A stretch of 63,983 bases of DNA, counting the filler, from Hausera hauseri (taxonomy: Eukaryota): NCBI GenBank assembly GCA_046269625.1. It is 12 parts of 12 records of this genome, joined end to end, with 100 filler letters (N's around TTAATTAATTAA, not from the genome) between each part and the next. Parts side by side here need not be neighbours in the genome. Positions count along the whole stretch, not along the records: positions 60,032 to 63,983 come from JBJURY010862742.1; 11 more parts are not named here. One strand, 5' to 3'. Made by a program: the position numbers and the translations under genes. Below, piece by piece: positions 12,510-63,983 of this stretch. The stretch's first letter is position 1; the number at the start of each line of letters is the position of its first letter. The notes beneath the pieces were generated by a model, which was not told the origin of the DNA, ran no database searches, and was given only the letters and a program-made list of their open reading frames with translations.

Positions 12510-12756
12510 TTAAAGTATAAAATTGAAAGTTTATTATACAAATACGGTTAGCAAAATGTATGTATAGCAAGTAACGGGAGAAAAACACAGGAACTTGGTG
12601 AAAGTACAGAAGAAGATGGCGTATTAAGGATGAATAAAAGGGAAAAAGACACGAGGNNNNNNNNNNNNNNNNNNNNNNNNNNNNNNNNNNNNNNNNNNNN
12701 TTAATTAATTAANNNNNNNNNNNNNNNNNNNNNNNNNNNNNNNNNNNNNNNNNNNN

Positions 12757-14216
12757 TAAACTTCAATTTGCCAAAATCCTTTACGTAAATCTAATGTGGT
12801 GAACAACATTTTGTCTTTTAAATTATTCAGTATTTTATCGATCCTAGGTAACGGATAAGTGTTGTCCACTGTTACTTCATACAAGGCGCGGTAATCTAAA
12901 CACATCCTGATAGATCCATCTTTCTTTTGTACCATTACAATTGGGGCTGCCCATGGAGAATTACTTGGTCGAAATATGTCGTGCTGTTTCATCTCAGCTA
13001 TTATTTCTTTTGTCCTTTCTCTTTTATCATAATTAAGCCTATATTGTCTCTTCTTAATGGGAGTCTCCATTCCTTGTTTTAATTTAATTTCATGCTTGAT
13101 GACTGGTATTACTCCCATATCATATTCATCCACTGCGAATACATTCTTACATTGCTGTAATATTTTTATTATGCCTTCTTTTTCTGCATCTGTCAGTGAG
13201 CTCTCTTTACCAAACAAATCATAGTCATTCTAGTTGATAGGGGTTTTCGTAAGTTTTATAGTTTTATTATCTTTATTGAGATGGGTTTTTAATCTAATCA
13301 TTGGCTCGTCCTCGAACCGTATTCCACATTCTGCTTGTGGTTTTTGACGTTGTTTTTCTACGAATTCGGATAATTCTTGTACAGTGGAGATAATAGCTTC
13401 TATTGCCTTATTACCTACATCTTTTGTAATATATATGTAGGCAATTCTTGTGCCTTTCCTCAATAATTTTGGTTTATTTGAAACAGTAGCTATTCGAGAA
13501 ATTACTTGTTGTTCTCGAATATTATCGATCGCATGAGCAATCCATAATTAACTTTTATCCATAAAGTTTACATTTGGTTCAATGTATACATCTCCTTCCT
13601 CTCGACCTTCTACTAAAGCTTTAAACACAACTTCTGTCCTAGCTGGTATTAGTACATATTCTTTGATAGATACCGTATCCTTTTTCTCTTTCTTAATTTT
13701 TCGGTATGGTTGAATTTGTTGGGTTTCTAAATTTATACACATATTTTTTAATTTTGCTAACGCCTTACATTCAAGTATAGCTTCAGCTACTAATTCGTCG
13801 GCTATTCCAAATTCCTGTTCGAATTTTTGATTAAGTACTTTCGTTTCACATTTAATTAAGTCTTTTACCTGCACTTTAGTTCCAAATGCTCCAATATTCG
13901 TAATATCTTCTGTGGGTTTTTGTAATTTCTTTTTTAATTGTTTGGGCAACTGTTTCCGCAAAATCATTGAGGCCGATGCTCCTGTGTCAATTATTGCGGT
14001 GATAGGATATCCATCTATCCATATTACTGTGCTTGATATTACTTTACCTCCATCTATACTGGTTATCAATGCCTGTTTTGGAGCGGATGGATAGAACATG
14101 AGCTTCAAATGCTTTGAGTCATAATTGTCTATACCACTTGAATAATGTATATCTATATATTCATTAGGAGACATAAAGTGTTGCTGTTTTAATTGGTACT
14201 CATTCCACCTTCTCAT
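12757..14216 (-). mobile_element. Ty3/Gypsy aspartic protease - linker - reverse transcriptase N-terminal part (pseudogenised)
   Basis: AIIDTGASAS protease motif; RT motifs SPWAAPIVMVQKKDGSIRMCLDYRAL, YPLPRID, LDLRKGFWQI. ORFs starting at 14216, 13463 and 13217 share one frame, split by single stops. Confidence 0.93.
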
Positions 14217-14399
14217 CTGAGGAATATCTGATATTAAAGTCCTTCGCTTCTTACTTAGAGCAGTAATTAAACTCCATATCCTTCTAGTGTTTTCGGTTGG
14301 TTTAGGTATTTTCTCCTTTATCTTCTTTGGTTGGAATTTGTTTTGATCGTTACTATTATTATCGTCATCATTCTTGTTTTTGTTTTTCTGTTTTCATTC

Positions 14400-16240
14400 A
14401 GCGTCCTTTTTAATCAAAAAGCAACTAGCTACGGATGGAATTAGTGCACAAATAATTTTTCATGTACACTCAACAGCTTGTTTAATGCTCTAACCTTTGG
14501 TTATCATAGTCAAAATTGCTTTATAAAGGCGAAAATATAATAAAATCCCAGACATCCTGAATTAAATTGGCCAAACCACATATACCATCCCCATGCGGTC
14601 GCAAATATATCCTTAGCTATTTTCTAAGCATAGTCCGGTCCTATCAAATTTTCCCTGTTAGCTTTCCCGATGTGATCAGCTAACACTCTCATTGCAATCT
14701 CTGTTAGAACTTTTTGTCTATGTTGAGGGAACATCATCATTCTTCTATGGTTTTTCATATCTTGCTCGGAATACACACCCATCTTTACTAAGTCTATCAA
14801 TGGCTTATACGTTTGTTCGGTTTTGAAATTGATTAAACTAATCCTCCGAGGTGGAGTAATCTGATCCTTCTGCGGCACCCTTATCCATAAGTTATCGCTT
14901 AGTCGATATGCTGGCGACATAGTATATGTACAATTTGGCGTACATATGGTTTTTCTGCCGGATCTAATAATATCCGGGTGATTAATTGCAAGAAACGTGG
15001 TTTTTCCTTGTACCAGATAGGTAACTCCATGGTACAGTCGGTTGTTGGTCTGAGTTTGACAGCTACTTTTGTACAATCGAAAGTTACTAGCGTCTCACCC
15101 ATTGTTTGAGCAAATTTCCATTCTGCATGGGGAGACTCGGCTGGATCTTTTATTATTCCGTCCGTTATCGCAGATAGATATATTCGGTTTCTAATTATCT
15201 CTCTGTTCAATTTACAATCATTTAATATTATTTCTCGATACATAGCATAAATATTTTCTTGTTGGAAGTGATAAATAAAATCAATCTTATTATCGAAATA
15301 GAGATGAGGCTTCACTTCCGATTTATCAATCTTCCTTTTAACTTTTGTTATTTCTGTTGTGGATAAAAATGTCCCTTTATAATTTTTTCGAAATATTGTG
15401 TGGTCGCATCTTCTAGTGTCACTTTCTAATTAAAATCTCATTCCGTCTTGAGGATTTGCGGAATATACCATGGTAGGAGTCTCAATCATATCCGATACTC
15501 GGTCTAGTTTACTCTTAGATATTTCTTCTTTATACATTCGTCCTTTTGTTTCATTGAACTTTCCTGTTTTTAATAAAGCTAATTGACACTGATCCCTATT
15601 GACTTCATATGACATAATTGATTCACCAGTGTCACATTTTTTATTATAATAATCACATTCCGGGAACGTCATCATCTTTCCTGAAGACAGCTCAAAGAGG
15701 GCATCGTATTCTCTCAACTCAACTTGGTAATCTTCAATAGCCACTATATTATCTAAAATTTCGCCATTTATATTGTAAGACTCACCCTTACAATATCCCG
15801 TCTTATCAACTGTTTCAGCCACGAAAATTCTTTTATTGATAGTTTTTCCTTTCTGAGCTTTCAATCTAATATTGCCAATATTAATCTGTTTTGTCACAAA
15901 AGCCTCTATGCACATTCGTTTACTTATAGGAAGTGGTTCGAATGGAGTAGTTGGTTCAACTATTGCTGAGTTTCGGTACCAATATCCGAAAATGAAGTGA
16001 AAGTATTTCTTTCAAACAAAGCATTCTTTTACCTTAGTTTTCACAAACTCTGACTGTTGATAAACGTAGTACTGTTTTTCCTATATAGTAGTTAATGAGG
16101 CTGGATTGGCAAAAGGACATTGTTCTAAATCTAATAAGGAATATATTGGACCTTCATTGGCTTGGCTGCAATCATAAGCAATAATTGAAAGTGCTTCTGG
16201 CATCAGGCTAAACAAAAGAAGTATGGGTATTACTTTGGTT
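14400..16240 (-). pseudogene. Chuvirus/Monjiviricetes-like class III fusion glycoprotein (env-like), embedded in the Gypsy polyprotein
   Basis: Signal peptide VIPILLLFSLMPEALS then IIAYDC..YSLLDLEQC; GYCKG; ECDYYNKKCDTG; HLYFDNKIDFI...MYREIILNDCKLNR; GETLVTFDCTKVAVKLRPTTDCTMELPI; GVYSEQDM..RMMMFPQHR; C-terminal W/G-rich hydrophobic segments. Several stops and two frameshifts. Confidence 0.85.
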
Positions 16241-16698
16241 AGCTATGATAAGTCGAAATCCGGTTGTTGGTTTTGTTGTCTCTCTGATTGCTGAGGTGGA
16301 AGATATTCCATTCGTTGCTGTGTAGTTGGTGTCGATTCATGTATTGTTTTATGGACCAGGCTACTAATCCATCCACCTCTGCACTTTATCCATCCCTCGA
16401 CATTATCCTTTAATGCTCTTGTGGCAATTTCTATATTTCACTGTATTTCCTCCTGGTTCGGATTTACACCGTTCATTACCATTATTGCTGTCACAATTTT
16501 ATTTCGGTACATACCAGTTCCCATCATTCTTGAAAGAATATCCCTCTCCTGTATTTCATTTATCCTCTCGTCTGTAGGGATATCCGCAAATTGTTCACTA
16601 ATCTTTGCAATTTCATTCCTTATAGCATGCATTAGCGAATCCGGTATTTGTAAATTAGTATTAAACTCAACGAATACATTATGCACTCTTGCTAACAA
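16241..16698 (-). pseudogene. Unassigned helical plus Q/P-rich polyprotein segment, in frame upstream of the glycoprotein signal peptide
   Basis: Same frame as the glycoprotein N-terminus, with two in-frame stops; truncated at about 16700. Confidence 0.55.
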
Positions 16699-16699
16699 G

Positions 16700-17410
16700 G
16701 TTCAAAGAGATCAGACTATTGCTCAAGCCTTTGTCGAAGAAATTGTTTTTAATTATGGAGCACCGACTAAATTATTGACGGACCAAGCACCAAACTTCAC
16801 AGGAGAAATTATGGCGGAAATATTAAAAAAATTTCAAATACCACAGTTCAAAACTACTCCGTACCATCCTCAAACGAACATAACAGTAGAAAGATTTAAC
16901 GGAATATTAACTAATATGTTAGCGACCATGGTCAATGAACGACAAGACGATTGGGACGAATATATTAAACCATGTTTATTTGCAATAAGAAATACAATTC
17001 ACCCCGCAACCAAAGAGACACCCTTTTATTTAATGTACCTTAGAGATGCCCATATGCCAATTGATTTGGACTTTAAAATGCCCGTCTCCCATTTAAAAGA
17101 CATGGAATACAAAGAATTATTAGAAGAAAAATTAGGATATGTATGGAATTTAGCCTCACGTCATATAAAGATATGTCAAAAAGAGTATAAAGAACGCTGT
17201 GACGAAAAAGCTAAACCACATGACTTTAAACCTGGGGACAAAGTCATGTTGCATACATCCTTGAGTAAAAAGGAAAATACATCAAAATTAGACAGACCAT
17301 ACAAATGTCCATACATGGTTCAAAAAGTAGACGAAACTAACATCTACTTAAATAAAAATAAAAGAAATAAAATCGACCCCATAAAAGTCCATATGAACAG
17401 ATGTAAACCA
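16700..17410 (+). mobile_element. Ty3/Gypsy integrase core (N-truncated) plus GPY/F-like region
   Basis: TIAQAFVEEIVFNYGAPTKLLTDQAPNF...TTPYHPQTN..VERFN...DWDEY...TPFYLM...FKPGDKVML...KLDRPYKCPY...VHMNRCKP. Confidence 0.93.
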
Positions 17411-17439
17411 GCACCCGTGGAGTCAAAAATAAGGAATGA

Positions 17440-18600
17440 AAACCTCGGTCCATTACTAATAGAAACATTTGTAATATTAACTTTAGTGACTAGTATATCA
17501 GCCGAATCCTTGGCTGTAAATTACAAAGCCGTACAAGTTGGGAAATACCCTTGCATAAAAATCGCGGCTAATCGGAATTTAACAACAGATGAATATATAC
17601 ATATATTCATATCAGAATTACCTATAGTGGAAAAAGCAACGCCAGAAAACTGCGATTTGTACTATAATTATTCAATACACATTTGTTATTGGCTTTAATT
17701 CGGAGAAATGTATAGGATCGAATATGCAATTGGAAAGAGTGATCACAGTTACAGAACATATTTCTCATTCCCTGGTACTACCCATTATTTCCATCGATCC
17801 TATTTTCTTATTTCGTTTTACACTAATGTCATGAAAAATGGACCTTGTGAAACAGCAGAACCCGACATTACAATCACAAAATATATCAAATTTAAATATG
17901 CAATATTAGATGGAATCAACAACATATATTATAAACCAACTTATCAGAATCCTTACTAATCTTGTCCTATTGTTTTTGATAAGGAGTACGCAATATATTA
18001 TTGGACCGCGTATAATGGTTATACATTGTCAAAAACAGCAGATGGTCCGGAGACAATTGCGAAGTCCCTGATAAGGACAACAGAAAAAATAATTATTTTG
18101 GTAACACAACTGAGTAGTTCAAGAACACTACAAAGAATAGTAACTAGTCCAGCAATGGAACCAAAGAAAGCTATTAAGGAATTAGACATAATTATCCAAC
18201 AAACAACGCATTCATTAGTTATTACAGTGACAGATTTAAAGACTACGAAAATAAAGTTTGAATGCTATTTTAATCACAGGGTGGTCGGTGAAGGAATTTT
18301 AACTCCGGAGGAACCAACCTCAGCTTGCATATCTTTAAAAGAAAACACAAGCTATAAAGTTATTATAATAGAATTAAATGAAGAGGGTCAAAATATTCAA
18401 ACTATTAATCGAATAGAAAAGACATTAAAACAAGTGGCTATGACAAATATGAAGGCCATAAAAACAACTAGACCAGATTATGAGAACAACTCAAACTAAT
18501 ATATACAAATAATGATTGTATTATGTGTATTTTTAATACTAATAGTTATATTGTAACTCTTAACAATTTATTGTTCTAAAATAAAACGCAGCCAACGTAG
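17440..18600 (+). pseudogene. Type-I membrane protein (signal peptide, beta-rich/FN3-like ectodomain, TM) in frame after integrase
   Basis: LLIETFVILTLVTSISA signal-like segment; ORFs 16421, 17708 and 18026 share one frame; SLKENTSYKVIIIELNEEG resembles the FN3 LxPxTxYxVxV strand; TM IMIVLCVFLILIVIL*LLTIY followed by basic KIKRSQRR. Confidence 0.65.
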
Positions 18601-18608
18601 GACAAAAA

Positions 18609-19850
18609 ATGTTAAATGAATTAAAACTAATAAGGGAGGACGCCGAAAATGAACCAATAAAGAGAAAAGATGCGTATTACATTAAAAGCCTAAGGCAGGT
18701 TGAAAGACTTGCCGATCAAAAGCGACAAATTCGATCGCCTAAGGATATAACTATATGTCTGTGCACAACTATACAAGATAAGGCCTCTGAGTTCTTGGCG
18801 ACCTATCAAAAGATTAGACAATCAAAATATAAAAACATTTCCATTCTTCAAACCTCTCGGCTAATATTATATTTCTTTGTAGTCCAAGAAGGTTCAGAGC
18901 AAGCCCAAAGACAGAAATCGTTCTACCACAATATTACGGCCAATTCAACGGCAACCATGCATAAAGATTATTCATACTTCGGCAAAGCTTCACGCATACA
19001 AAACAATTTAAAATGTCACTTAGTAACCCAAAGGTGTGGTCTTATTATCAAATTGCAAAGCCGATCGGCGAACTTAACAGATTTAATTGATATTTCTGGG
19101 CGAACCAGATCTGTCTATATTTCAGTAGCAAGAGAGGCCGTTCAACTTAAAAGCAGATTCTTGTCAAATAATATAACCGATACCGTAGAACTTTTGGCAT
19201 TTACGACAATTCACCTTCATCAACAGTTCTACAAAAATGCCGCGATTATTATACGAACTTATACTGGATCATCACCAATAATATATATCGAGGTAACGAG
19301 AAAAGATGTACATAAAGTACAATACGACATGCCTACTTATGAAACACCTATATCAAAACGGTTTAAATTAGAGACAGGTATATCATTCTTTAGAAGTTCT
19401 CAATTTACTAAGCAAGATGTCATGATAGTAGCAATTAATTTAGCTTACACGATGACTCCAATTCGGAATAAAGAAACTACTCCAGTTGAAATCACTATAA
19501 AAACATTGAAGGTGATATTATTTTGGATCAAATTATTTGTCCACGAGATAAAGATGATAACTACAACACATATCACTGGCCTTAAGGAAATGGATTTAAT
19601 AGGTCAAATGGATACTAATCAAGTTGAATCCCAAATGAGGAAAATATTAATCGGAAAACCAATAATCGGAATGTACGTATTTAAACATTCAAATACATCA
19701 TATCTTGGGACAATATCCTTGACCTACGGGATCTATTTTATCATAAAAAAATTAAATTCCAAAATGAAGAAACTACAAAACAAATGTTTACAAGATTTAA
19801 TGAAGGTATTTAGCCGCAGAGAACTTCAGAAAAAGCCTCAACGATATTAA
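18609..19850 (+). pseudogene. Cytoplasmic accessory region ending in a degenerate REX4/ISG20-like DEDDh exonuclease fold (about 19425-19690)
   Basis: IVAINLAY...PVEITIK/(shifted frame)NIEGDIILDQIICPR/...THITGLKEMDLIGQMDTNQVESQMRKILIGKPIIG follows the REX4 pattern; the ExoI acidic residues are absent. Confidence 0.6.
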
Positions 19851-20164
19851 AAATATACAATTCAGTTCCCCGATATAAAAATAAAATCGAAATGTTGAAA
19901 CCACCGTTAGAAACCATGGATACATCAGAAACTACGTTTAATGACCGAGTCTAATCTAAATCCATGAATTCTTTATCCGAAAATAAAAGTCAAGCGACTG
20001 TCTAGACGCCCAAGAATCTTGAACAAATGACAGTACCCATTCAAACATCATCATCCAAAGTTTCNNNNNNNNNNNNNNNNNNNNNNNNNNNNNNNNNNNN
20101 NNNNNNNNTTAATTAATTAANNNNNNNNNNNNNNNNNNNNNNNNNNNNNNNNNNNNNNNNNNNN

Positions 20165-49700: not shown

Positions 49701-50153
49701 ATGCACTTATAGTGTGATGCGCTTATTAGGTGATGCGATTATTAGGTGATGCACTTATTAGGTCATGTGCTTATTAGTTCATGTGCTTCTTAGGTGCGGC
49801 ACTTATTATTTGATGCACTTGTTAGATGATGCACTAGTTAGGTGATGGACTTATTTCTCGAATCATATATTAGGTGATGCGCTTAATATGTGATGCACTT
49901 ATTAGCTGATGCACTTATTAGATGATGCGCTTATTAGGCGTTGCAGTTATTATGTGAAGCATTTATTACGTAATGGACTTATTAGGTGATACACTTCTTA
50001 GGTAAAGCGATTATTAGGTGATGGACATATTAGGTGATGCGCTTATTATGTGACTCCCTTATTGGGTGATGGAATTATTAGGTGATGCGCTTATTAGGTG
50101 ATTCGCTTATTAGATGATGCGCTTATTAGGTGATGGATTTATTAAGTGATGCA
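40786..50153 (+). repeat. 16-bp satellite array, consensus TTATTAGGTGATGCRC, roughly 580 units, with higher-order variant blocks
   Basis: The whole contig is tandem degenerate 16-mers; no ORFs in any frame. Confidence 0.98.
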
Positions 50154-50255
50154 NNNNNNNNNNNNNNNNNNNNNNNNNNNNNNNNNNNNNNNNNNNNTTA
50201 ATTAATTAANNNNNNNNNNNNNNNNNNNNNNNNNNNNNNNNNNNNNNNNNNNNGT

Positions 50256-50351
50256 TTAACCAACGATCTGGGACAAAAGATCCCATTTATGAGCGGAACA
50301 TCGACGGTGACGTTACGTTTTAGGACGAAGGGACAAGTCGATTTCCAGTAA
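50256..50351 (+). pseudogene. Polinton minor capsid (penton) C-terminus
   Basis: LTNDLGQKIPFMSGTSTVTLRFR* matches the typical penton end, and it lies just upstream of the core/MCP genes. Confidence 0.7.
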
Positions 50352-50364
50352 GGTTGGTCAGACA

Positions 50365-50810
50365 TACCCCTTTGCATCGAAACGCCGAGGCATACAACGA
50401 CTTTTACCACAGCCAAGCCAGAGATGGGATTCCCGTCTTTGTCAGTGGTAGACATCAGAGAAGGAGAGGGATTTGAAGTTTCTTTAGCTCTGGGGTCGAA
50501 TGGTTCTCCCATGGCTAAAGACTGAAGGCAAAGCCCTGCTCAGGGAAGGAATTGGTACGAGCTTGCAAGTCTCCAATGACGCTTTAGCCGATAGAAATGT
50601 AGGTGAAGCCATTAGAGACCACGCCAGACAGGCGGGTCAGAAACTGCTGCAAGGTGCGGTGAGCCACATGGCAGGCAACCAATCGGGTAGCGGTACCTGC
50701 CCCACCAGGCGAGCCCTTTAGCAAAGGAATAAAACCGACGGTCGCTTCGAGTATTTCTCATAACAAGTGCAAGGAAAAGCGAGTCAGGCTGTATTCAGAC
50801 ATCCTTGATT
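50365..50810 (+). pseudogene. Polinton/adintovirus core (pVII/pX-like) protein, frameshifted
   Basis: YNDFYHSQARDGIPVFVSGRHQRRRGI*SFF...PWLKTEGKALLREGIGTSLQVSNDAL..RNV.EA...QSGSG. Confidence 0.65.
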
Positions 50811-50814
50811 AATA

Positions 50815-52072
50815 ATGTCTCTCCTTCACCCCGGCTCGTGCGAGTGCCTTCACTCTGAATTGTATTTGTTTAGTGTTCCTCCGACGCAAACGGCGGTAGA
50901 GGAAGGACAGTTTGTAGAAATTTACCTCGCTTCTCTCGCATCTGGGGCGCCCATAGAATTTGTAATATCCGGAAACAGCGAAGAGTATCTAGATTTGTTT
51001 AATAATTTTTGTTACACGTGAAAGCCAAAGTCGTTTTAGTCAATGGCAACAACATACCCAAAGTTTATTTTCTCAAGTGGACTTTGCCCTGAGCGATAGG
51101 TTGATCACGCTTAGTGAAAACACGTATCCTTACAGATCTTACCTCGAATCGATCTTAAATTATGGTCAGGAAGCAAAAAAGGGGTCACCAAACGGCAGCT
51201 CTATACTGCAACGACACACCAACATTTTTCGATGATGCAAAAGGCGAATTTAACTTTGGAATAAAAATGCGTTGGGTGTTGGCTGGAGGTAGTCATGAAA
51301 TGGATATGATGGAAAAGTTGCACTCTGACATTTTCGTGCAAGACCGATATTTGCTGAACAGTGTAGATGTAAAAATAAAGCTCACACCGGCCAAGGACGC
51401 GTTCAGCCTTATAGCCGACGATCCAGCAGAAGATTATAAATCAATTATAACTTTAGCCGTCCTGGTAGTCAGGAAAGCCAATTTAAATCCAGCCATCTCT
51501 CTGGCACACGAAAAGGCCTTAACTACAGCGAACGCGAAATACCAATCAAACGTATCTCACTATAGACATTGTCTATCCCTAAAGGGATGTTGTCGCACAT
51601 TCAAGACAATTTTTTTCCTAAGTAAAACACCCACACGTATTGTAGTCGGAATAGTTAGTTCCACAGCCTTTAATAACCAGTTCAACTTCCAACACTTTGG
51701 CCTGACATATCTTAATGTAACCGTTGATGGTCGAACAGCCACAGGCAAACCGTTACCAAAAAACTTTGAACACAATCAATATGCCAGAGCCTTTTTGGAA
51801 CTAATCTAGCGATGAACCTCATAGGCATAACACTGGGTGGGATGTACAGTACAGAGATTTTAAGAATGGTTACACACTCTACGCCTTTGACTTAACACTC
51901 AGCCTTTTTATACGGTGACCAGTTTGAACTCGCGAAAAACGGACCCCTTTCATTAGAGTTTAAATTTTCCTCCATAACGCCAGAACCTATACAAGTCATA
52001 GTGTACGCTGAGCAAGATTCCATAATTGAAATTTCCAAGACTCGCCAAGTGTTAATGAATTACGCAGCTTGA
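50815..52072 (+). pseudogene. Polinton/adintovirus major capsid protein (double jelly-roll), frameshifted
   Basis: MSLLHPGSCECLHSELYLFSVPPTQTAVE...PIEFVISG..EYLDL; YPYRSYLESILNYG; LHSDIFVQDRYLLNSVDVKIKL; PTRIVVG; FNFQHF; GYTLYAFDLT; VIVYAE..SIIEI. Confidence 0.9.
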
Positions 52073-52076
52073 AAAA

Positions 52077-52550
52077 ATGAATACTGAAGAAATAATAACA
52101 TTTTACAGTCTGACATTTTCGTTGTCATAAGTATTAGCGCGAGATCAACTACCAGAGTTTTTTGATAGAACCAAGCCTGCTGCCTTTGTCATAAACACAG
52201 ATCCCAGTTATCTAGCAGGCAGTCATTGGGTTGCCTTGTATTACAACGGTGATGGAACATTTGAATACTTTGACTCGTTTGGTTTACCGCCAATGCACAA
52301 GGACATTACAATTTTCATAAAAATGAACTCTGACAGACTGGTCATCTATAATGTACAGCCTCTACAAAGCATTACGAGTAACACGTGTGGTCTCTATGCT
52401 ATTTATTTCATCCTGATTAAATGTCGAGGGAGAAGTATGCAATGCGCCCTTATGCCGTTCACAATACACAGACAGCCCACGAATGACATGACTGTTTGGT
52501 GCTTCGTTCGACCTTGGCTGCGCAAAAATAAATTTGATTTTGTTCTATAA
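52077..52550 (+). pseudogene. Adenain-like cysteine maturation protease
   Basis: VINTDPSYLAGSHWVALY...EYFDSFGLPP...QPLQSITSNTCGLYAIYF (H-D-Q-C catalytic set); 5' part disrupted. Confidence 0.9.
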
Positions 52551-52635
52551 ATAACTATGACGTTATAAAACCGGGTTGAACCGGTTATAATGGTATATAA
52601 GAAGCTGCGTTTTCGCTGTAGCCAACACACTGAAA

Positions 52636-53121
52636 ATGTATACGAAGATAGGCGAGCATTTGTATATGACAACCGATGCGGTGTTTGTGAAACCGCTAGG
52701 TGACATGAAACTAGTGACCGTTTCATTTTATAGAAATAAGACCATGGTGCATGTTCGCCGATACTTTGGAGAAATTTACATCAAATACCCGACGAAAACA
52801 GTCATCTCGTTGAATCGCGAAGACTTTGAAAAGCTGCTCGCGATGCAGAATGACATTTTAGCTGCTTTTGATAAGCTAAACACGGCACCAAAAGATGTAT
52901 CAGAAAGAGAACCGTTAACAGACATTGACTCAAATGTACCAAATTTTCTCTCATTCTACAATCAAGACACGCAACCTGACTTTTTACAGACCTATGTGCC
53001 CACGTATGATGCTTGTATTCAAGCAACAACACCAGTTTCTGATGTTCAATATAAAAAACAATTAAAAGAGCCACGCAAGCCGTCTCTGAAGAAATTCAAA
53101 CGCGTGAAAAATTTGCCTTAA
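52636..53121 (+). CDS. PC4/Sub1-like ssDNA-binding domain protein of the Polinton
   Basis: KPLGDMKLVTVSFYRNKTMVHVRRYF...YPTKTVISLNREDFEKL follows the PC4 pattern; ORF intact, with a basic C-terminus. Confidence 0.75.
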   Translation: MYTKIGEHLYMTTDAVFVKPLGDMKLVTVSFYRNKTMVHVRRYFGEIYIKYPTKTVISLNREDFEKLLAMQNDILAAFDKLNTAPKDVSEREPLTDIDSNVPNFLSFYNQDTQPDFLQTYVPTYDACIQATTPVSDVQYKKQLKEPRKPSLKKFKRVKNLP

Positions 53122-54340
53122 TAAATGTTGAAAACCCAAAACGTTGTTATTTCAGTATGTCTGTGTATGGCTGTATGTGTGAGTATGTCTGTGTGTGTGA
53201 TATTAGTCACATGATATATAGCCAGCTGACAACCAGAGATTCTACACGACAACAAGAATTGGACCTTTTTCTCTATATTCATCGTTGGAAACAACTATTT
53301 GCCACAAGACAAAACTTTCTCTCTATGAATACCCACAGCTAACAAGATGATGAATAAATGCTCTAAACAACGACCTCTACCACGGTGATGAGAGTAAACA
53401 ACAGACAAACGTTCACAGATGAAAACAAAGTGCAGAAGATCACTACTTGTTATTTTCCTCTCTTTTTTCTTCACTCTTAACTAAAGCAACAGAGGTGAAA
53501 ACTAAAACATACATAACTTAACAAATTGACAAATACAATATTCCGTTATTGATCCTACACATAATTAAAACACCACCTGCGGTTCAGAGTCAGAATGAAT
53601 CTAGATTGCCGTGCACGACAAAAAAAATAATCAGCATGCTGGTCTTTCTCGCTGGCTTTGTAGCAGATGGTGCATTTATTAACTTGCCAGGTCTTTGTTT
53701 CAACGGCGTGTATAGCCAAAATCCTCTCTATATAAACCAGCCGATTGGTTAGTTTTACTTCACTGTGTTCCAAACCTGTGTGACAGATCCACTGCCTTCA
53801 AGAAACATTTGGAAAATTTCGGAAATAATTTACTGTATGGTAAGTATAACAATATCTTTTAGACTCGAAAGTGTATATACCTGTGTGCAGTTCAAACATT
53901 AGTGTTATAATTTAGTTCTTTATTAGGCCTTTTAAAGACTGATGTTCACCATCTTTCTTTGATATCAGTAACTGTTGAGTCACGTGCTTAATGGAGGCTA
54001 TTAGTGAAAAGTATTTATTGTTTTACTTAGTGACCCTTACAAATACTAATTGAATGTGAGGTCAAAGGCACCAACCACTCGGTCATCATCGAGGGCTATT
54101 GCGCCTGGTACTCAGACCCCTGTGGAGCATAGGTTGTCACACATACTTTGTACCTTAGGGACAAAGGGAACATGGTGCTGTCAGCCAAGTGGCTGGTATT
54201 CGAAATATAAAAAATAAAAACAATCGTTAAGTAACAGACTATAACTAAATCAACATACAAAGCACATCTTGTAACTAACTTATTCCCTGCTTGATTTCCC
54301 CGATTTAGTTTAGTTTAGATGCCTGTGTTAAAACAGTGTT

Positions 54341-55294
54341 TTGGAATTAATATTGACATATTCAAGTTTGATGATGCGCGAGTCCTTTCCCCAAAACTTG
54401 GATTCAGGTGGTAGTGACAGGTTTACCGATACGTTATGTCTTTTACTTTTTAAAAGTCATTTTATGTACATAGTTGACATAGATAGAGCAGGGCATGCCT
54501 TCTCGTGTTCTAAATGCGGCAAGTTGTGGAAAGTACATCGGTCCATGACAGAACGTGTAAAGGTGGTGCTTCAAAAGAAGTATTTAAAAATTCACCATCA
54601 AACGAAATAGTACCTTTACGCGTCTAGCCACACAAAAGTACAAATTTCTAGATATATGCAATTACTTAGCCATGGGGTTTAGTTATTCCAAATATCTAGC
54701 CGCGTATAAGGTGGAAGAAACTAAAGGTTTCTTCTGTTATGAATATATAGATAGTTTAGCCAAGTTGGATGAAACTAACCTGCCTCCACACTCCATCTTC
54801 CATTCGACGCTTAAAAACTGTAACATTTCCGAAAAGGACTACGAATATTGTCAACGAGTATGGAAAACAGAGGGGATGCACACCGATTTCCTCATCTGGT
54901 ACAACAACCAAGATGTAGTCCCCTTTATAACGGCATTGGATAGACAAGTCGCGTTTTATTCCGAGTTGGGGGTAGATATTTTTAAGCAGGCGATTAGTGT
55001 CCGCTGGGTGAGCTTAAATTATCTTTTTAAAACCCTGCCCTCCGACGTTAGTTTTTCCTTGTTTTCCAAACGTCAGCAAGATCTCCACCAGACCCTCAGG
55101 GACAATATAATCGGGGGACCTAGCATCATGTTCCATCGAGAGCATACATCTGGCAAGACGCGTATTAGGTGTGATAAATTAGTTAAGAGTATTAAGGGTT
55201 ATGACGCAAATGCTCTTTATCTCTGGGCTCTAATGCAAGATATGCCGACCGACTTTGCCATTGTAAGAACTTGTGAAGATGGGTTTAAGAAACA
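54341..55294 (+). mobile_element. Second, different Polinton pPolB (internally deleted, truncated)
   Basis: HFMYIVDID...FSCSKCGKLW; FLDICNYLA.GFSYSKYLAAY...KGFFCYEY...YNNQDVVPF...IIGGPSIMFHR...GYDANALYLWALMQDMPT. Confidence 0.9.
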
Positions 55295-55394
55295 NNNNNN
55301 NNNNNNNNNNNNNNNNNNNNNNNNNNNNNNNNNNNNNNTTAATTAATTAANNNNNNNNNNNNNNNNNNNNNNNNNNNNNNNNNNNNNNNNNNNN

Positions 55395-55540
55395 GCTGCA
55401 TACAATGGCTCCCCAATTTGAGCAAAATCTTTGATAAACCTTCTATAATAATTTGCTAAGCCTAAGAATAATCGTAACTGGGTGACACATCTTGGAGGGG
55501 GTGCTTCTCGAATTTTGCCAATCTTGTCATTTGTTAACAC
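55395..55540 (-). mobile_element. Ty3/Gypsy RT thumb/connection fragment
   Basis: KIGKIREAPPPRCVTQLRLFLGLANYYRRFIKDFAQIGEPLY. Confidence 0.88.
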
Positions 55541-58112
55541 AGGGATTGAACGAAGTCGTTCAACCTTTAGTACTTGTCAACATATAAAGGTCAGCCTAAT
55601 TGGTGTAATTGGTGAGTTCGCTTACCTCTTTTAGTAATTGGGTGAATCTGTTTATCTCATTTATGTTTATCAACTTCCTCATACTCTCAGCCTGTTCTAT
55701 CACATGTTCTTTTCTGTACATAGTTACTCCTTTATATCTTCCTTCTTTATTTATAGTTCTCAACCATTCCCTTTAGGTAACGACAATAGCCAAGTCCTTA
55801 ATTTCTATACTATGACCGATTGTTAATCTCAGTAACTCATCTATATAGAGGGAAAATTTAACTCTAGACTGTTTTGGAGTAATTATTCGTTCGAGTTCCT
55901 GGATGTGGTTAGCCTTTAATAAACTATCAAAGGTTCGAATTATCCCGCCAATTAACAACATTAAGTCGCCAAATTTCCTGTTAACACAGGTAGAGATTAT
56001 AGCGATTAACAACATCCAATTATCAGATTTATTTAGGTTCAGAGGTACATATGAAGTCACTCTATAAAACATACAAATTTCATACATGCATAACTTTAAA
56101 TAATGAATATTAGATAATAAGAACCAAGTATCCAATCCTATATCAGAAAATAGTCGCGTTAGGTTCAAAAATTTATATATCTTTTAGTATTATTATATTA
56201 CATAATTTACTAAGTTAAAACCTTTTGACTGTTAACCAAATAAATAGAGAACAATCTACCACTAGTATTATCGTAACAATCAAAAGTCTTCTGATTCAAC
56301 CATGTTATTTAATGATCAGGGGTATATGCGATAAGGAAATAATAATGTCTAAACCAGGAAATATGTTCGAAATAGTAGAACAGACAGAAAACAACTAAAA
56401 TCAAGATAATCGACCCAGACTCCAAAATTGATTCATTCATTCTCAATTTCAATCTACAAGATTTTTACATAACGGAACATCATTTAAAACAAACGGTTAA
56501 TTAAATCATAAACTCAACAACCATTTATTCCATTGTCAAGTATGTTCTAATCTCCCTTTCCAACGGAATGAATTAAGCCGTCATCCGATTTATTTCGTAC
56601 CGCAGTATCAAAATCGATAGGTTTATTTTCTTACTTTGTCACAACCAGAACCAATCCTTAATGACAACCTCCGCATCAGCGACATATATCTAATGATTCA
56701 TTTTGTTGAAATTCTAAGTACAGTTTAGTATCTCACGAAATCATTCAGGATTTGTTAATAAATTTAGTTCAAATAATTTCTCATCATACCTTCATAGTCG
56801 TCGTAATGTTATCTGACTCAGGTTAAATCGAAATCTCGTGAATTACCCTAATACGACAAAACACAACACAGATAATATAATTAACGTCTACCCGCTAGGA
56901 CTCTTGCTTGGATTACCTTCGATCAATATACAAATATTCTGTACATAAAATAATCAGATATCTGAATCCGTGAATCATCGTAAAACGTTGTTTCCTATGC
57001 AGGTTAATCCACCGCCGTTCTGGCATATCGACGACTTTGCATTTTCCTTAATCTCTCCTCGTTCATCTCGAAGACCCACTTCATCGTTGCATATCATTTG
57101 TTTCGTATCCGACCACAAGTTGTCATTACGTCCGTTATAACCAGACCATTTAATACAGTTTATGAAATTCAAAACTTTATTACATAACAAAAATAACAAA
57201 ACCATAATTATAACATCGATCATGGGTTATTGATATATTGATACCATAAAACATCTAAATAAACATATCTTACCAATACTCGCTTTGGCCACATTTCTAC
57301 TACCATTACTAAGTAAGGGAATCGCATTTCCTTGAGCTTCAGCATCAAAAGCCATTTCCGGATTCGGAAAATTAACATGATCTATTATTGCAGTCACAGA
57401 CTCCGTTCCAGCATCCATCCTATCGTTGATTATTGGCATATCAGGGTTCATTTAATTATACTGTTTCACAGAGAATATACAATTCTCTCTCTCTTATTAC
57501 AACATGAACAATGGTTACGTAAACTTTCCAGAAAAAACGTCTGGTCCGAGAGTAATGCTAAAATTGCAGTAGTTGAAAAAATTTTTTTTGTTTTTTTTTG
57601 TTTCTTAACTTCGTTAATTTATATACTTGTCTCGTATATGCAAAATTGGTTACCACTTGAATTTTCAAATTATTCAAATGAATTTTCTTATTCGCCATAC
57701 GATTGCAAAATTGGTTACCAGCTGGATTTTTAAATCATTTAAATAAATTTTGTTATTTACTGTGTGTTAATAGGCGATCTACTGTATGTTACCAGGTCAA
57801 TTTTCATAATTGACTATTTGAATTTTTATAATCGATTACTGTTTCTGGCCGAAGAAAATTTTGATGTAATATTCATTTTAAAATCTCCTATTGATTCTAG
57901 CATCAATCGATCAATACCCAATCCACCTCTGGCTAACAATACACATATACATAGCAGTGGTAATGAGGATACCCATCACTTGGGTTACACAGTAAATGAA
58001 GTAAGAAAGAAAACAAAATAAATAAATAAAATGTATTTACTAAATGTCTACTAAACAACAAAACATCCACAGAATGATAGTGTTGGTAATGTTGTGTCGC
58101 AGGATGGTGAAA

Positions 58113-59931
58113 TCAACAATGGTACATCATAATAAAGTTTGCTGGAAGTGTTATTCCATTATTCTGCATCGGACTGAAACTTATGAATCTAATGACCCTA
58201 GTGGCCCTCAACATTTCTCCCCCTTTGAAAAGGATTCGGTCCTCCGGATCACACTGGGTACTGGCATCGATAAAACTGAGATTTCTGGGTCGAATTGTTA
58301 ACGTTGAATCATTCACTGGGTTCATCCAATGGCATAATTGCTGGGTATGGTTATCGTAGACGTAGGAGAAGTGGTAATATTCTTATGGTTGGCGGCAGTA
58401 GGGACATGACATACCGTTCTGAAATGTCATTTGGAGTGCATTGTTTGGATCAATGGATTGAAGGAATTGATAACGGAGTTTATTGAAATATGTTGCACAC
58501 AAGGTGTGGTTACATTGGAATTGGACTATTGTTATTCTCTCGGTTAGACAAATTGTACATTCGTAGGTTGGAAGTTGATCGTAAAAGAGAATTTGCAATG
58601 TTGCCCAAAGATTTGGTGGGGCTAAATTGGAAATAAGGTCGATTCGGCATTTACTGAATACGGGGAACCAATCCTGTTGTAATGATATTGGTAATGGAGG
58701 ATTATGAGATATTGTTGGTGTAGGCGTTATCGAAGGTGCAAGTACTAGTAATTCAGATAACGGTCTAATGACTCTTTCAGGATTGTAACGTGGATGGGGG
58801 ATTCAAGATGGCTGGTGTAGAAGAGACATTATGTTTATATGGGGTAAAGGTACTTGGTATACAAAAGATGGTGGTTGGTTTATTGTAGATGGGCTAAAAC
58901 AATTGATAGGGAATTCAATTCGAACTGAGGATTGCTGTTCTAATCGAAAGTATCTTGTGGGTAATAGTTGAGGAATTGGGGTGTTAGTAATAGTAAGTAA
59001 GGCTCGACTCGGGTGATGGAAGTAAGAAGATATGTATTCAGGGCAAAAATAACATACTGCAAATTAAACATCGATGGTGGGATTCCAACTGGTAACAATG
59101 AGAGCAGTATTCTGCATTACAGCAACTAAATTGGTAATCTGTTTTATTAGGTTTATTGCATAAACAACAAGTATGTAATTGAAAATAAAGAATAGAAAAG
59201 GGTGTTGACACATCCCATGTATAATAATATGTAACGTGATCAGAAGGTTCAATGATTTCGAGAGTTTTGGCGTGAAGTAAGGTTTGATCGGCATCAGATG
59301 GGAATGCGTTATGCTGGATGCAATATTTTATCTCATACTTGCAGATTTGACAATAAGGCATGGGGTTTGCCTGGGATTTTGCTCTATCTATGCAGTATGA
59401 ACAGAACATATGCAAACATAGTGTTAATCTGTATACGACATTGAGGATCGCTCGACATTCCATACATTCTGGGAAATCTAAAAATAAGCATAATTAATTG
59501 AGATTTAATTCGATTGTATTAAGATCTATACAATTATCAGTGTCTTCAATATATAATGAGTTGGATAGGTAGTTGTACAATTGTCTAAGTAAATGGGCTT
59601 GTACTAATGGTAATGTATATGTAGGAAGTATAGTGGTTCGTAGTAATCGTTTGCTTAGACGGATTATAGGTACGGGGTCTTTTGAGAAATTTATAGAGAT
59701 AGGATGGTGGTAAAAATCGGAGAAACCATTGGTATCACTAATAGGCAATTTTAATGAACATAAGAGTAGATCAAGTTGTGATGTTATTATAAATTTGTGC
59801 TGCAATATATCTTGTATAAGGGGTACGAAGTCTTCATTATCGATTTTATACAAGGTAAGGTCATCAGTTATGCCTGCAAAAAGTGTTCTCCAATCGATAA
59901 CTTTATGTCTGGGATACATTTGTTGCTGTAA
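58113..59931 (-). pseudogene. Decayed long reading frame with three RING-like zinc fingers and Pro-rich linkers
   Basis: CMEC...CLHMFCSYC...CQIC; CCLC...CCNAEYCSHC...CLIC; CTIC...CNHTLC...CPYCRQP. ORFs starting at 59919 and 59463 share a frame; no introns apparent. Confidence 0.7.
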
Positions 59932-60569
59932 NNNNNNNNNNNNNNNNNNNNNNNNNNNNNNNNNNNNNNNNNNNNTTAATTAATTAANNNNNNNNNNNNN
60001 NNNNNNNNNNNNNNNNNNNNNNNNNNNNNNNACTTACAATCGTCTGATCGTGAGGCGCTTAGAATATGAAATGCTCAACTGCTTTTGGGCTATCTGCCGA
60101 AACAATTTCCACCACCAGTTGATTTGCTTAAGTGGGATTTTCACCGGTTTGAAATTTTCCGACTGAATTTTCCCCATGTTTCCATGGTCTGAACGAGTTG
60201 ACATTGTGTGCCTTCGATTCCTCGACATTGGTTTGACATGTCCACCAAAGATTGCAAAATTCGTAACTCGTGTCGCGTTTCTCATAAAAATTTCCTGTTT
60301 TTCTTCTTGCTTCTAGTGCCGTCCAGTAAAATATTTAACTCTCGCCGCGCTAAAAAATTTTTCTCCCCTCATTGAGCTCTTTCGATTTCCGTCGGTGACA
60401 TGTGCGACATGTGACATGTGCTTTCAATCCTGGGGGGGGTCTTCCGATCTCGAGACATGAAATGCTCAGAATTGCGAGATAGGTGGGGAAATTATATAGC
60501 GAAGCTCGAAAAATGCTTTTGAAAAAATTTTCCGACGGTGGTTGAGAGCCCACACTTCTACTTACTGAC

Positions 60570-60670
60570 ACGGGCCATATAAAGTCGTGGATGTACGCCA
60601 ACAAACTATTTTCGTCCAGAAAGGACCGAACAAATATGAAGCTGTGTCCCTACAAAGAGTAACGAAAGCA
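60570..60670 (+). mobile_element. Ty3/Gypsy integrase C-terminal GPY/F region
   Basis: GPYKVVDVRQQTIFVQKGPNKYEAVSLQRVTKA, in frame with ORF 60587..61132. Confidence 0.65.
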
Positions 60671-60779
60671 TCAATATCATACAATGATTTCATAAGACAG
60701 GTAGAGTTAGAGTCATCAGATAAAGTAGAACCAAAAATAGCGGCTCTATTTCAGAGGCAAAACATGGATAACTTTAAAT

Positions 60780-62420
60780 TTATGAGTTACCGAGTTTACC
60801 CCATATGGGGTAGATACTTTGGCATGGTATTCTTTATTTTATTGACGTTTTTCTCACAACTTGCAGCTGCTTTATACAACTTTACTAAATTGGTTATATA
60901 CACAACCATTTCTCATATTGATAAAAGCGAACCTATTATTTGCTTCCGAACATCCGTACGGGTATACTCACATTACAAAGTGAAGTTTGCATTCACATCT
61001 TCAAATAAAATATCAACCAGTTGCACTATCCCGGATAAACATCATCAGACTTGTTGCCAACTAAATTATGATACTTCTTATACTTCTTATGTATTATTGA
61101 AATCTTTAGATCAGGACGGATATAGTATTTAATGGAACCCGAATATTAATGTTAATATCCCTCTTCAGGATATCGTGGATATTTTAGACAAACCAAAATC
61201 AGATATGGTACTCTATGATGAGTTCACTGCTTAATTCTTAAAAAATAATACTGCGATATCAGAGATAAATTCGGTCCGTCCTTGCATCAATTTCCGAACT
61301 ATACAACCTTTGCACCTTAGATACAAAATTCATATATGGTATGATGCTCACCCCAGATATGTGCATCAACCACATTTCTGTTATCTCAATAGAGCACATC
61401 CTCTAGTATGCTATGCTCTCCATACTAATATTCGGTACATAATCCGTTTTGATATGTACTTCAGCAAAGGCACTTTTCATCTAATACAATCCTCGCGATT
61501 ACCAATCTTTATCATTATTAAAAATACGCAGATAAAATCTATTTTAAATATTATCCATGTTCCAAAAATTTCTACACGTACAGCCACCCACAAGAGTAGA
61601 GGAGAGATAGGAATAACCAGAGAAGTAACCAAAGCAACCACAAGAGTAGCAGAAGTAATCAAACCGCTGACGAAGACAATAAAGAAAGACAAGCATATTT
61701 TCAAAGGAAGATTTATGAAAAATTTCCCAATCGAATTTAAATTGAAACCTTATACAAATAGAATCGAGATAACCATTTCTCAAAAAATAAAATGAAAAAA
61801 TTCGGATAAAATGTACAAGTATCTACTAAAAAGTCGAAATCAAGTTTTCCAAAAATAAACGCAATTTTTGTGAAGGCCTAACACTGGATACAAATAATTT
61901 TGTCAAAATATACACGAAAGATAATTCAAAATTAGTGACGATAAAAGCGTCACCCTTAGCAGATCAATATCAACACATAAGATATAACGAAGAAGATGGA
62001 AGAATGAAAACAACCACAACTTTACCGGACATTACAGAATCGTATTTACTTAAATATTAGTGGAAAATTGGGTAGTGTTAGGAATCGGTACAATATGTCT
62101 AATCATAGCAAAATATAATCATAAATGAAGTGTAAAAGAACAAAAAATAATGAATCCCATTACTACGAAATAATACGAAACAACAGAAATTATAAGATAG
62201 TGGAGTTAAACAATATTGAACCACAGAATATTACAAAAGACATACCACTGACTCTTAATGAAATTCAGAGAAGAGAGAAATATACACAAACCACATTATG
62301 TTTTATACCTCTCTTACTAATCAGATTAAATAAAGACAGCACATACAAAATTTAACAACATATTGGTACATAATCCTTATGATTGGTGGACCAATAATAA
62401 TGAGTTATTTTAGTAAGAAT
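60780..62420 (+). pseudogene. Post-integrase signal peptide / ectodomain / TM protein, homologous in layout to 17440-18600
   Basis: YFGMVFFILLTFFSQLAAA signal-like segment; ORFs 60587 and 61310 share a frame; NNRNYKIVELNNIEPQNI vs ENTSYKVIIIELNEEGQNI; hydrophobic YWYIILMIGGPIIMSYF then basic residues. Confidence 0.5.
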
Positions 62421-63520
62421 ATCAAATCCAATCAAATAAGAAAACGAATCAAATTTAACTTGTGTGTTAACACGAATAGATATAAATTAGATATAATTCA
62501 ACAATTTTTCAGTTTAATCGCTGACAATATGTCAAGAAAGCAGAATAATGCTCCCGAAATGGGAAGCGGGAACTCATCAAGAAAAAGAATCAACGCTCCT
62601 AAAACAGGAAGCTCAAACTCCAGGCGAGTTATCGCAAACGCTACCGAAACGGGAAGCACTCAGGATTTCGGACAAAGAAGAGGGACAAATAAAGAAAAAT
62701 ATGACAAAGAAGGAATTAGAAAACTTTCCGTCATTCGCCAAACTATGTCGTACGCATTTTACGACAAAATAATCGCGCATCTCGATCAGGATAATCAATT
62801 TATTGACGAAGTCTCAAAAATCCCAAATTATTTCAAATATGGAGAAACGAGGAACCGATGCTTACTTCCATTTAAATTATATCACTTTGATGCTATTCTC
62901 CCTCTCACACAATGGATGAACGAGAATAAAGGAATAACAGCTCACATAGCATTAGGCAGAGTTCAGATAAATTTTAGAAAATTAGATGGCAAGGAAAATC
63001 GAATAGAGAAAATTGACCATCAAGAATCGTTACAGATCAACTATGCAATAGACCCAAAAGGAATCACAACTGTTTCAAGAGAAATGCTAACCATTGGCCC
63101 TATTGAGTATTATATTGCAGAAAGTGTATACTCAATGCCAGAGCTAATAAAATTTAAAAGTGAACCAAATGAAGAAGAATTACGAAGAGGATCCAATATT
63201 TTATTAACTGACAGAGCAAAAAGCATCAGGTACTTAGCGACTTCCTTTGCATATGGAAAACGATCAAATGGAACCCAGATTCCATTGCCTATTGAAATCA
63301 TTATTGCGGAATCAAATGGTGACATTATTTTTTCTGAAATAATATCCCCAAGAAGAGCAATCCATAACTTGAATAGAAACCGGCACAAGATAGATTGGAA
63401 TCAAATTCAAACCGGAATGGATTGACCAAAACTTAAAGCTGAAGTTACAAAATTTACTTTGGGATATAAAATTGTGGCGTTAGAAGTGCACAAGTCGTTT
63501 AATGCGCTTTGCATACTGAT
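62379..63520 (+). pseudogene. Cytoplasmic accessory region with degenerate REX4/ISG20-like DEDDh exonuclease fold (about 63231-63510)
   Basis: YLATSFAYG...PIEIIIAESNGDIIFSEIISPRRAIHNLNRNRHKIDWNQIQTGMD*PKLKAEVTKFTLGYKIVAL; homologous to 19425-19690. Confidence 0.6.
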
Positions 63521-63983
63521 TATTCGAGCTTGCGCAGTTGTGGATCCCATGAAGAATGTATAGAAAACTTATAATCAACAGATAACTAATATATGTCAAA
63601 TAATAGCTATGCTGAAACTTCTCCAATTTCCGAGTACTACGGAAGGAAGACTCCAGTTAACTATAGAAGCTCACAAGAAAACTACCGATCACTATGTATG
63701 GACACCAACTGAACCCCAAGGAAACATACTTGATTATGGAGACTTATTGAATCAAAAAACGTCCATTTGATGTTTAGGCCACGTAGTAAAAGAAACAAAA
63801 TTCAAGAACATTCCAATGAAGGACAAGATCGAGCCTGGTGAATTTGATGTATCTAACTGTCAAATATCAGAAGGGGAAACAGATGATTAAATGAGAGTGA
63901 ACAAAAGAAAATATTGATAAAAAGGAAATGCGACTGGACAACGCAAGTTCAGATATCTACTCAAACCGAAAGTTTAGAAAAGA

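Follow-up and report, generated by a model that had tools for sequence, protein, structure and literature searches.

The DNA analysed here, a stretch of 63,983 nt from Hausera hauseri (the window, below), consists of 12 contigs of 4-9 kb with N-linkers between them. Our subject is a decayed sequence on contig 12 (60032-63983; copy B), apparently the 3' end of a Ty3/gypsy retroelement, together with its counterpart on contig 4, on the plus strand from about 16712 (copy A). In both, the end of an integrase is followed by a signal-like segment, an ectodomain predicted to be fibronectin-type-III-like (FN3), a transmembrane anchor and, probably in a gene of its own, a nuclease-like domain that has lost catalytic residues. 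An annotation made earlier from the sequence alone (the sequence-only reading) treated contig 12 as separate from the rest of the window, which the contig borders bear out. In the two copies, 93 and about 110 bases separate the last reading frame from the contig end. A quarter of copy B's sampled words were present in the public run X1, and X1 pieces 80-100% alike were placed on copy B (4366 pieces) and on 15500-20064 (10358 pieces). Because thousands of such pieces match each, copies A and B both belong to repeat families. No RNA run was among the listed holders of copy B's words. X1 sequencing depths given below are summed over bins and are not copy numbers, and the comparison of copy B with X1 has 40 of 422 differences among those listed.

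The integrase remnant of copy B (60572..60680, plus strand) comprises the GPY/F module at the C-terminus of a Ty3/gypsy integrase, about 35 residues. A profile was built from the C-termini of 22 of 31 integrase relatives, the other nine being without a GPY-type motif, and its sole match below E 1 in a six-frame search of contig 12 was 60569-60670 (E 0.0013). The GPY at 60572 thus aligns as a Gypsy-type integrase C-terminus, as had been proposed. In pairwise comparisons this end scored z 9.3 against P0007 and 4.8 against P0005, two of the relatives, and only 2.3 against copy A. Copy A retains integrase core and C-terminus (16712..17420, plus strand), with a Pfam rve match below the cut-off (E 1.9e-4) and 47-49% identity to P0001-P0005, which include full proteins with reverse transcriptase (RT), ribonuclease H (RH) and integrase (IN). 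An integrase with a GPY/F module at the end of pol, the Ty3/gypsy arrangement, was therefore found in both copies, by profile in B and by rve and relatives in A. Copy B is truncated inside the integrase by the end of an unrelated and far more abundant repeat (60032..60570, plus strand) with an end, TGACA, like that of a long terminal repeat (LTR). Summed X1 depth was 43,551-62,365 in the four bins of 60032-60570 and 151-2,248 in the 26 bins behind it; the segment had no Rfam match. It could be the end of an LTR inserted into copy B. Separately, 137 X1 pieces depart from this repeat at 60491.

Both copies continue beyond the integrase in the same frame, and the hydrophobic segments that the sequence-only reading had placed in that frame were found there. 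In copy B a single open frame, 60569-61132, spans the integrase end and a signal-peptide-like internal segment (60818..60874, plus strand; hydropathy 2.09) that would be a cleavage site. An ectodomain of about 390 residues follows (60875..62053, plus strand), with three Cys-bearing FN3-like motifs at 61052, 61409 and 61869, and then the transmembrane anchor with a six-residue tail and a stop at 62126-62128 (62054..62128, plus strand; hydropathy 2.18). The ectodomain is disrupted by stops and two frame changes. The stops at 61130 and 61232 are absent from all 5 and 13 X1 contigs, respectively, listed over them, and the break near 61790 is crossed by one X1 contig without a frame change. Copy A has the same arrangement: a signal-like segment (17444-17500) and an ectodomain of about 335 residues lie in the integrase frame (17444..18508, plus strand), and an anchor with one internal stop, a basic tail of 17 residues and a stop occupy 18509..18619 (plus strand; hydropathy 3.39). 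The copy A stop at 18497 was in none of the nine X1 contigs listed.

The ectodomains are predicted to be FN3-like, copy A by fold and copy B by a shared unit and motif. A single-sequence AlphaFold2 model of copy A 18140..18436 (plus strand) had a predicted local distance difference test (pLDDT) of 75.7 and seven strands, the number expected of the FN3 beta sandwich. Foldseek returned FN3 scaffolds and domains in all its top rows (probability 1.00, template-modelling score 0.46-0.65), and named viral matches were mostly FN3 as well; fn3 clusters in the ESM Atlas (0.88-0.89) serve as leads only. This domain aligned with copy B 60975-61130, 13 of 2000 shuffles being as good, and no significant alignment was obtained between the whole ectodomains of A and B (32 of 500 shuffles). 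The motif C-x2-L-x2-[DN]-[TI]-x-[YN], which was defined post hoc, occurs four times in the six frames of the window, once in the ectodomain of A and three times in that of B; among the 31 relatives it occurs once, in the P0003 ectodomain (shuffled mean 0.5, maximum 3). A profile made from 29 bacterial FN3 matches, at least one seed of which was a wrong-strand match, was powerless, missing even the copy A domain, and a PDB search with the copy B ectodomain gave chance matches only.

Behind the anchor, the two copies share a tail. The sequence-only reading had aligned the end of copy B's region with 19425-19690; the motifs it quoted sit at 63234-63349 in B and 19428-19545 in A. In plain form this alignment did not hold: tblastn, tblastx and three-frame Smith-Waterman comparisons between the copies were not significant, with none of nine frame pairs exceeding shuffles. 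The plain comparison fails because copy A shifts frame twice within the quoted motif. When X was placed at the breaks, the motif region scored 95, the best of 2000 shuffles scoring 58 and the best of 200 module-sized shuffles 76. Pairwise alignment of the repaired translations, which had been suggested as a check, was significant over a longer region: 62754-63503 against 18918-19690 scored 112, with 56 of 246 residues identical and none of 500 shuffles reaching this score. The homology thus covers about 250 residues, twice the stretch originally quoted, and the proposed old homology between two independent elements stands. We regard the layout and homology of the two copies as very probably real.

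Within the tail of copy B, low-complexity repeats of about 15 residues were recognized in translation (62529..62660, plus strand); their number varies from copy to copy, and X1 shows back-joints from 62567 to 62541 and to 62511. A codon-usage model was too noisy for a coding call on the linker. Next comes a domain of about 155 residues common to both copies (62754..63221, plus strand, in B), assigned to no family. By itself it was matched by 6 of 500 shuffles in the comparison of A with B, and it had no match in Pfam, NCBIfam, PHROGs or PDB. The nuclease-like core follows at 63234..63503 (plus strand) in B, where the domain probably extends to about 63700, and at 19428-19690 (plus strand) in A.

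The assignment of this last domain comes from families retrieved with the two copies together. A profile of A and B had a lone match in PDB at E 10 or below, ISG20L2 (7yw5; E 0.35), gapless over 70 columns. A DNA pattern drawn from the beta2-beta3-P-G motif common to A and B retrieved at least 120 and 70 loci, 187 of the 190 listed having an open frame. The ExoI signature D-x-E-[TS], which is not part of the pattern, was present in 153 of these 187 open-frame loci among the matches listed, and RNase_T was above the cut-off in 8 of 10 loci sampled. Since scoring on the retrieving pattern would be circular, only columns outside it were scored: with 139 unique members, A was equalled by 1 and B by 4 of 10000 shuffles. 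In 114 of the 139 members the ExoII aspartate column lies 67 residues past the Glu of the motif, and A and B have the same three-residue insert behind ExoI. We consider a DEDDh fold of the ISG20/REX4/RNase_T kind to be supported by these alignments. The match to ISG20L2 and RNase_T (PF00929) runs from the beta2-beta3 region to ExoII; unlike these proteins, the domain here is without the ExoI Asp and Glu and the ExoII Asp, and it has no Pfam match alone. The ExoI Asp and Glu are replaced by Ser and Ala in B and by Asn and Ala in A, and the ExoII Asp by Ser in B and His in A, so that three positions that are acidic in the active family are non-acidic in both copies. Most of the copy B-like X1 pieces are at least 90% alike (2975 of 4366), which is too little decay to explain the loss of the same three residues twice. 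The columns outside the pattern and the three lost acidic residues support the earlier call of a pseudo-DEDDh domain, a status that the alignment bears out for three of the five catalytic positions. Searches with single sequences were less informative: PDB returned nothing for the nuclease piece of either copy, and an AlphaFold2 model of the copy B domain (pLDDT 35.9) gave a best Z of 4.2 in a fold search with no DEDDh protein among 50 rows. In the ESM Atlas, where the score is not calibrated for partial proteins, residues 120-363 of copy B had a top cluster with RNase_T on 14% of its members (0.93, 181 features).

How far this 3' arrangement is shared was examined with the 31 longer proteins found by searching with the copy A integrase. 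In four of them (P0001, P0002, P0003 and P0007) the integrase continues in frame into an ectodomain and anchor; both hydrophobic segments exceed the threshold in three of the four, and P0002 has the anchor only. These proteins end 124, 23, 16 and 0 residues past the anchor. The nuclease domain is absent from all four of these intact relatives with a membrane protein, in a comparison confined to the proteins themselves. In X1 the cover along copy B is even (151-2,248), and along copy A it is 11,158-38,307 over env and integrase and 9-143 behind 18407, so that cover of the A tail is some hundred times lower than that of its pol and env. In most of copy A's family, the tail is missing or less than 80% alike. 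Because it is missing from the four intact relatives and thinly covered in A, the nuclease tail behaves as an optional cassette. The sequence-only reading had proposed an old, conserved architecture of integrase, membrane protein and nuclease; the old homology of the copies is retained, and a single fused order is not shown, the nuclease being likely to have its own gene and being absent in relatives. Other observations concern the same region. An X1 contig (depth 84, its surroundings 20-60) omits 18945-19505 and is thus without the last part of the shared domain and the first part of the nuclease fold. P0004, a close integrase relative, has aspartyl-protease-like domains behind the integrase where the membrane protein would be, and P0003 has two protease-like stretches upstream of RT. 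In P0001, residues about 1085-1195 form a short Cys-rich ectodomain in which the FN3 motif was not seen; on this account, the slot behind the integrase would seem to accept different ectodomains.

A possible alternative explanation of the shared order concerns ancestry only: the 3' cassette would be old and would move between Pol lineages by recombination, so that the order common to A and B is no proof of one family. The integrase end of copy B is nearer to P0007 than to copy A, in keeping with this. In the integrase tree (29 rows; P0012, P0020, P0025 and P0028 were excluded as too short) the membrane-tail label requires three changes, and swaps of a third gene between rotifer retroelement lineages are described in the part of the published account available to us (PMC5408684). 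The fall in copy A cover from more than 11,000 to less than 150 behind 18400 points the same way, but it may reflect divergence beyond 80% rather than absence. Against exchange, the relatives with a membrane tail are clustered in this tree to a degree reached by 4 of 500 shuffles, and copy A groups with P0001-P0005 at support 98/96.

The relation of the nuclease-like part to the membrane protein was judged from the reading frames. In copy B, a likely second gene of about 590 codons lies at 62125..63890 (plus strand), its ATG overlapping the upstream stop. This frame has one break, near 62334-62355, and stops at 63423, 63561 and 63768; the first was in none of the 15 X1 contigs listed. The segment 62125-62531 can be tiled to a long open reading frame (ORF) if a single frame change is allowed, as could 6 of 20000 shuffles, and one X1 contig crosses the 62334-62355 break with both sides in the same frame; for these two reasons 62125-63890 appears formerly to have been one ORF. 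The likely second gene of copy A (18609..19954, plus strand) contains the shared domain at 18918-19420 and has breaks near 19500, 19568 and about 19815. In both copies the membrane-protein frame ends shortly past the anchor, 6 codons in B (62126) and 17 in A (18617), and a downstream-frame ATG overlaps the anchor-frame stop, at 62125 in B and at 18609 in A, where 413 codons are open. The sequence-only reading had taken the nuclease-like part for the membrane protein's own cytoplasmic region, a view from which the early stop and overlapping ATG lead us to depart. Since in both copies the anchor has a short tail, as in the intact relatives, and the stop is overlapped by an ATG, we somewhat favour a separate gene coupled by stop and start over a cytoplasmic tail.

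The competing reading, that of one polyprotein in which the dead nuclease forms the cytoplasmic tail of the FN3 protein and tethers an RNA-Gag particle at the budding membrane in the manner of a matrix protein, is rather unlikely in our estimation, although several features speak for it. A diverged X1 contig over 18406-18715 has, by its length, anchor and tail in one frame. The ATG of copy A is altered in all five X1 contigs listed, the next in-frame Met being within the shared domain. Single X1 contigs weigh little, however, because one of the four control pieces for the reading of frames from X1 itself checked out of frame. Both frame changes fall in A-runs, where single-base slips are common, and the stretch of copy B from 62125 opens with a basic cluster of juxtamembrane appearance. 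The polyprotein would nevertheless require two independent breaks, each less than 20 codons from the anchor and each with an in-frame ATG on the stop, and three of the four intact relatives end no more than 23 residues past the anchor.

On our preferred reading, the 3' end on contig 12 is that of a decayed Ty3/gypsy element in which a predicted dead nuclease is encoded behind integrase, signal, predicted FN3 ectodomain and anchor, probably by a gene of its own, and we put the probability of this reading at roughly 0.45. Besides the two X1 observations on the frame of copy A, a number of results tell against it. No fn3 match was found in Pfam, NCBIfam or PHROGs, and the fold in B is predicted from homology and a motif. 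These three collections likewise gave no DEDDh match for the nuclease-like domain. The E value of 0.35 for ISG20L2 is by itself at chance level, another alignment having given a ribosomal protein at E 0.4, and the HMM alignment stops short of ExoIII, whose placement is not reliable. The database searches yielded no intact relative of the tail: the tail and ectodomain of copy B had no match in a 5.8-billion set or in 1.84 billion representatives; viral contigs held no relative of them, nor of the copy A integrase; the 0, 1 and 28 stretches returned by pattern scans of viral and metagenome contigs proved unrelated in tblastn; and tblastn against phages gave 13 weak chance matches only. The ORF borders therefore depend on two decayed copies. 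Finally, copy B would be placed among GAG-ENV-POL elements by analogy, as it has no env or RT left.

That placement starts from the block in front of copy A. On the minus strand of contig 4, head to head with the copy A integrase, lie a Bcl-2-like segment, a gB-type env, a protease and the start of RT (12757..16701). Monjiviricetes_fusion was above the cut-off in three of three pieces, followed by RVP above the cut-off and RVT_1, so that a gB-type env upstream of protease is found on contig 4; contig 12 is without env. The Bcl-2-like segment matched Pfam Bcl-2 below the cut-off (E 0.032, profile positions 6-100), and a PDB search with it gave calmodulins from E 0.065 and no Bcl-2 in the best 60 of 104 rows. 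The contig 4 RT and the copy A integrase have the same best matches, P0001 and P0003 (45-51%), in which the order is protease (PR)-RT-RH-IN, whereas PR-RT and IN stand head to head on contig 4. Two X1 contigs end at 16702 and 16715 and continue unlike the window. The junction at 16702-16715 joins coding to coding sequence head to head, and would be a private inversion or an assembly chimera; none of the X1 contigs shows the uninverted form. Because RT and integrase share their best matches and the X1 contigs stop at the junction, 12757-16701 is probably the inverted front of copy A's own element. As copy A adjoins a Burro-like block of a Bcl-2-like segment, env, protease and RT, its group is probably of the known planarian GAG-ENV-POL kind, and the suggestion of an undescribed retroelement group was too strong, this gene order having been published for planarian Burro and GAG-ENV-POL errantiviruses. 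Judging by this order of genes, the host is probably a flatworm.

Burro (GYPSM1), a giant planarian Ty3/gypsy element, has the Bcl-2, env, PR, RT order proposed for contig 4, an env akin to mononegavirus fusion proteins and much accessory cargo, but its description, in the portion available, names neither an FN3 membrane protein behind the integrase nor an exonuclease-like gene (PMC6431247). Copy B differs further from Burro in keeping none of the front part, and neither contig carries a giant single ORF, a Gag with CCHC knuckles or long LTRs. GAG-ENV-POL errantiviruses with an HSV/gB-type env, Smed_errantivirus_1-6 for example, are reported from flatworms, nematodes and bryozoans and have, like contig 4, such an env upstream of pol (PMC13524379). 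The Schmidtea env rows of that study resemble the contig 4 env in a by-eye comparison; in the parts of its text and seven supplement files available, 'fibronectin' and 'exonuclease' each occur zero times, and no second membrane protein fused to integrase is mentioned. The third ORF of the bdelloid rotifer elements Juno and Vesta is, in the sections at hand, likewise an exonuclease gene (DnaQ-like) behind a Ty3/gypsy pol, patchily distributed and exchanged, but it is of the DEDDy, RNase D-like type, with intact catalytic residues and without a transmembrane segment (PMC5408684). The gene described here is DEDDh (ISG20/REX4-like), has lost residues, carries an extra upstream domain and stands beside an FN3 membrane protein; membership in the rotifer ORF3 type was considered and rejected, given the DEDDh-type matches and lost catalytic residues. 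A search of the openly available literature found neither an FN3 membrane protein nor a dead DEDDh gene in LTR elements. What is new here is the occurrence of the tail in two lineages 23% identical, with a shared upstream domain and with catalytic residues lost in both.

If the preferred reading of the 3' end is correct, host signal peptidase may cut at the internal signal, so that the C-terminal part of Pol is released as a type I membrane protein, and the FN3 repeats, lying outside, may act as attachment partner of the gB-type fusion protein from the Burro-like front. Ribosomes that terminate just past the anchor would reinitiate at the overlapping ATG to make a soluble protein of linker, 155-residue domain and dead nuclease. 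By covering RNA or cDNA ends, this protein might compete with host 3'-5' exonucleases, the cassette then being an optional means of counter-defence. By analogy, the dead nuclease would serve as a nucleic-acid-binding shield, a function we propose tentatively and hold at somewhat less than even odds. There is precedent for RNA binding by dead DEDDh folds: the PXL domain of PML and Drosophila Exu, in the part of their account available, have the fold without an acidic site, but they are host proteins with a SAM-like subdomain and are likened here by description only (PMC13659232). The arenavirus nucleoprotein exonuclease is, according to the passages available, a virus-borne DEDDh domain linked to suppression of host defence, but one that is catalytically active, part of a nucleoprotein and from an unrelated virus (PMC7968707).

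It seems improbable that the tail is instead a functionless passenger, a captured host ISG20/REX4-like gene whose catalytic residues drifted away. Its absence from the intact relatives, the thin cover of the A tail with one contig skipping 18945-19505, and the broken state of both copies would fit a passenger, but scaffold residues, the three-residue insert and the extra upstream domain have been kept in both lineages despite their low identity. Moreover, the copy B tail is as evenly covered in X1 as the ectodomain, three stops are private to copy B, and open frames of 363 and 421 codons persist. Least probable of all is that the domain has rebuilt its active site and works as a nuclease that trims RNA ends, primers or small RNAs of the host; the precedent would be Maelstrom, described in the part of the source available as a DEDDh fold without the DEDD motif (PMC7968707). 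ExoIII is not placed, and a His-x4-Asp of copy B near 63690 (MAFFT placement only) could represent it, but the aligned core of A and B has no common conserved set of Glu, Cys or His, and the three metal-binding positions are non-acidic in both.

Other features of the window may be noted briefly. Contig 6 carries a distant Ty3/gypsy pol (27017-30224, minus strand; rve, RVT_1) with a long branch on the integrase tree. Contigs 7 and 10 (33627-36119, minus strand, and 51159-55346, plus strand) hold Polinton/Maverick-like or adintovirus-like pieces, with Endonuclease_7 in an 830-aa ORF, adenoviral protease C5 and PC4, and 183 aa in common at 31%. A decayed frame on contig 11 (58383-59931, minus strand) contains RING-finger stretches, two or three in number; Burro elements are described as having RING cargo. 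A tandem array of a 16-base unit in 584 copies (40794-50153) fills contig 9. A catalytic piece of glycosyl hydrolase family 116 (12120-12551, plus strand; E 7.8e-41) is probably a host exon, and a 270-codon open frame on A-rich tandem repeats of 16-18 bases (5737-6549, minus strand) has no family match.

Enveloped Ty3/gypsy elements are usually viewed as consisting of gag, pol and one fusion protein, and a gB-type fusogen usually requires a receptor-binding partner, as is established for herpesviruses. In the literature found, no such partner is described for the gB-type env of these elements, a role for which the FN3 membrane protein fused to the integrase offers a concrete candidate. The wider proposal, that flatworm-type elements combine two-glycoprotein entry (a gB fusogen before pol and an FN3 protein off the integrase) with a dead ISG20/REX4-like nuclease antagonizing RNA-end surveillance, is speculative and on balance unlikely. 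For annotation, Pol in this clade continues past the integrase. Host DEDDh nucleases restrict retroelements, according to the part of the source available (PMC10123124), and an element-borne dead copy is therefore a testable counter-defence hypothesis, one that concerns animals whose stem cells rely on piRNA control. If true, it would mean that a pseudo-nuclease counter-defence protein is encoded by retroelements and conserved across such distant lineages.

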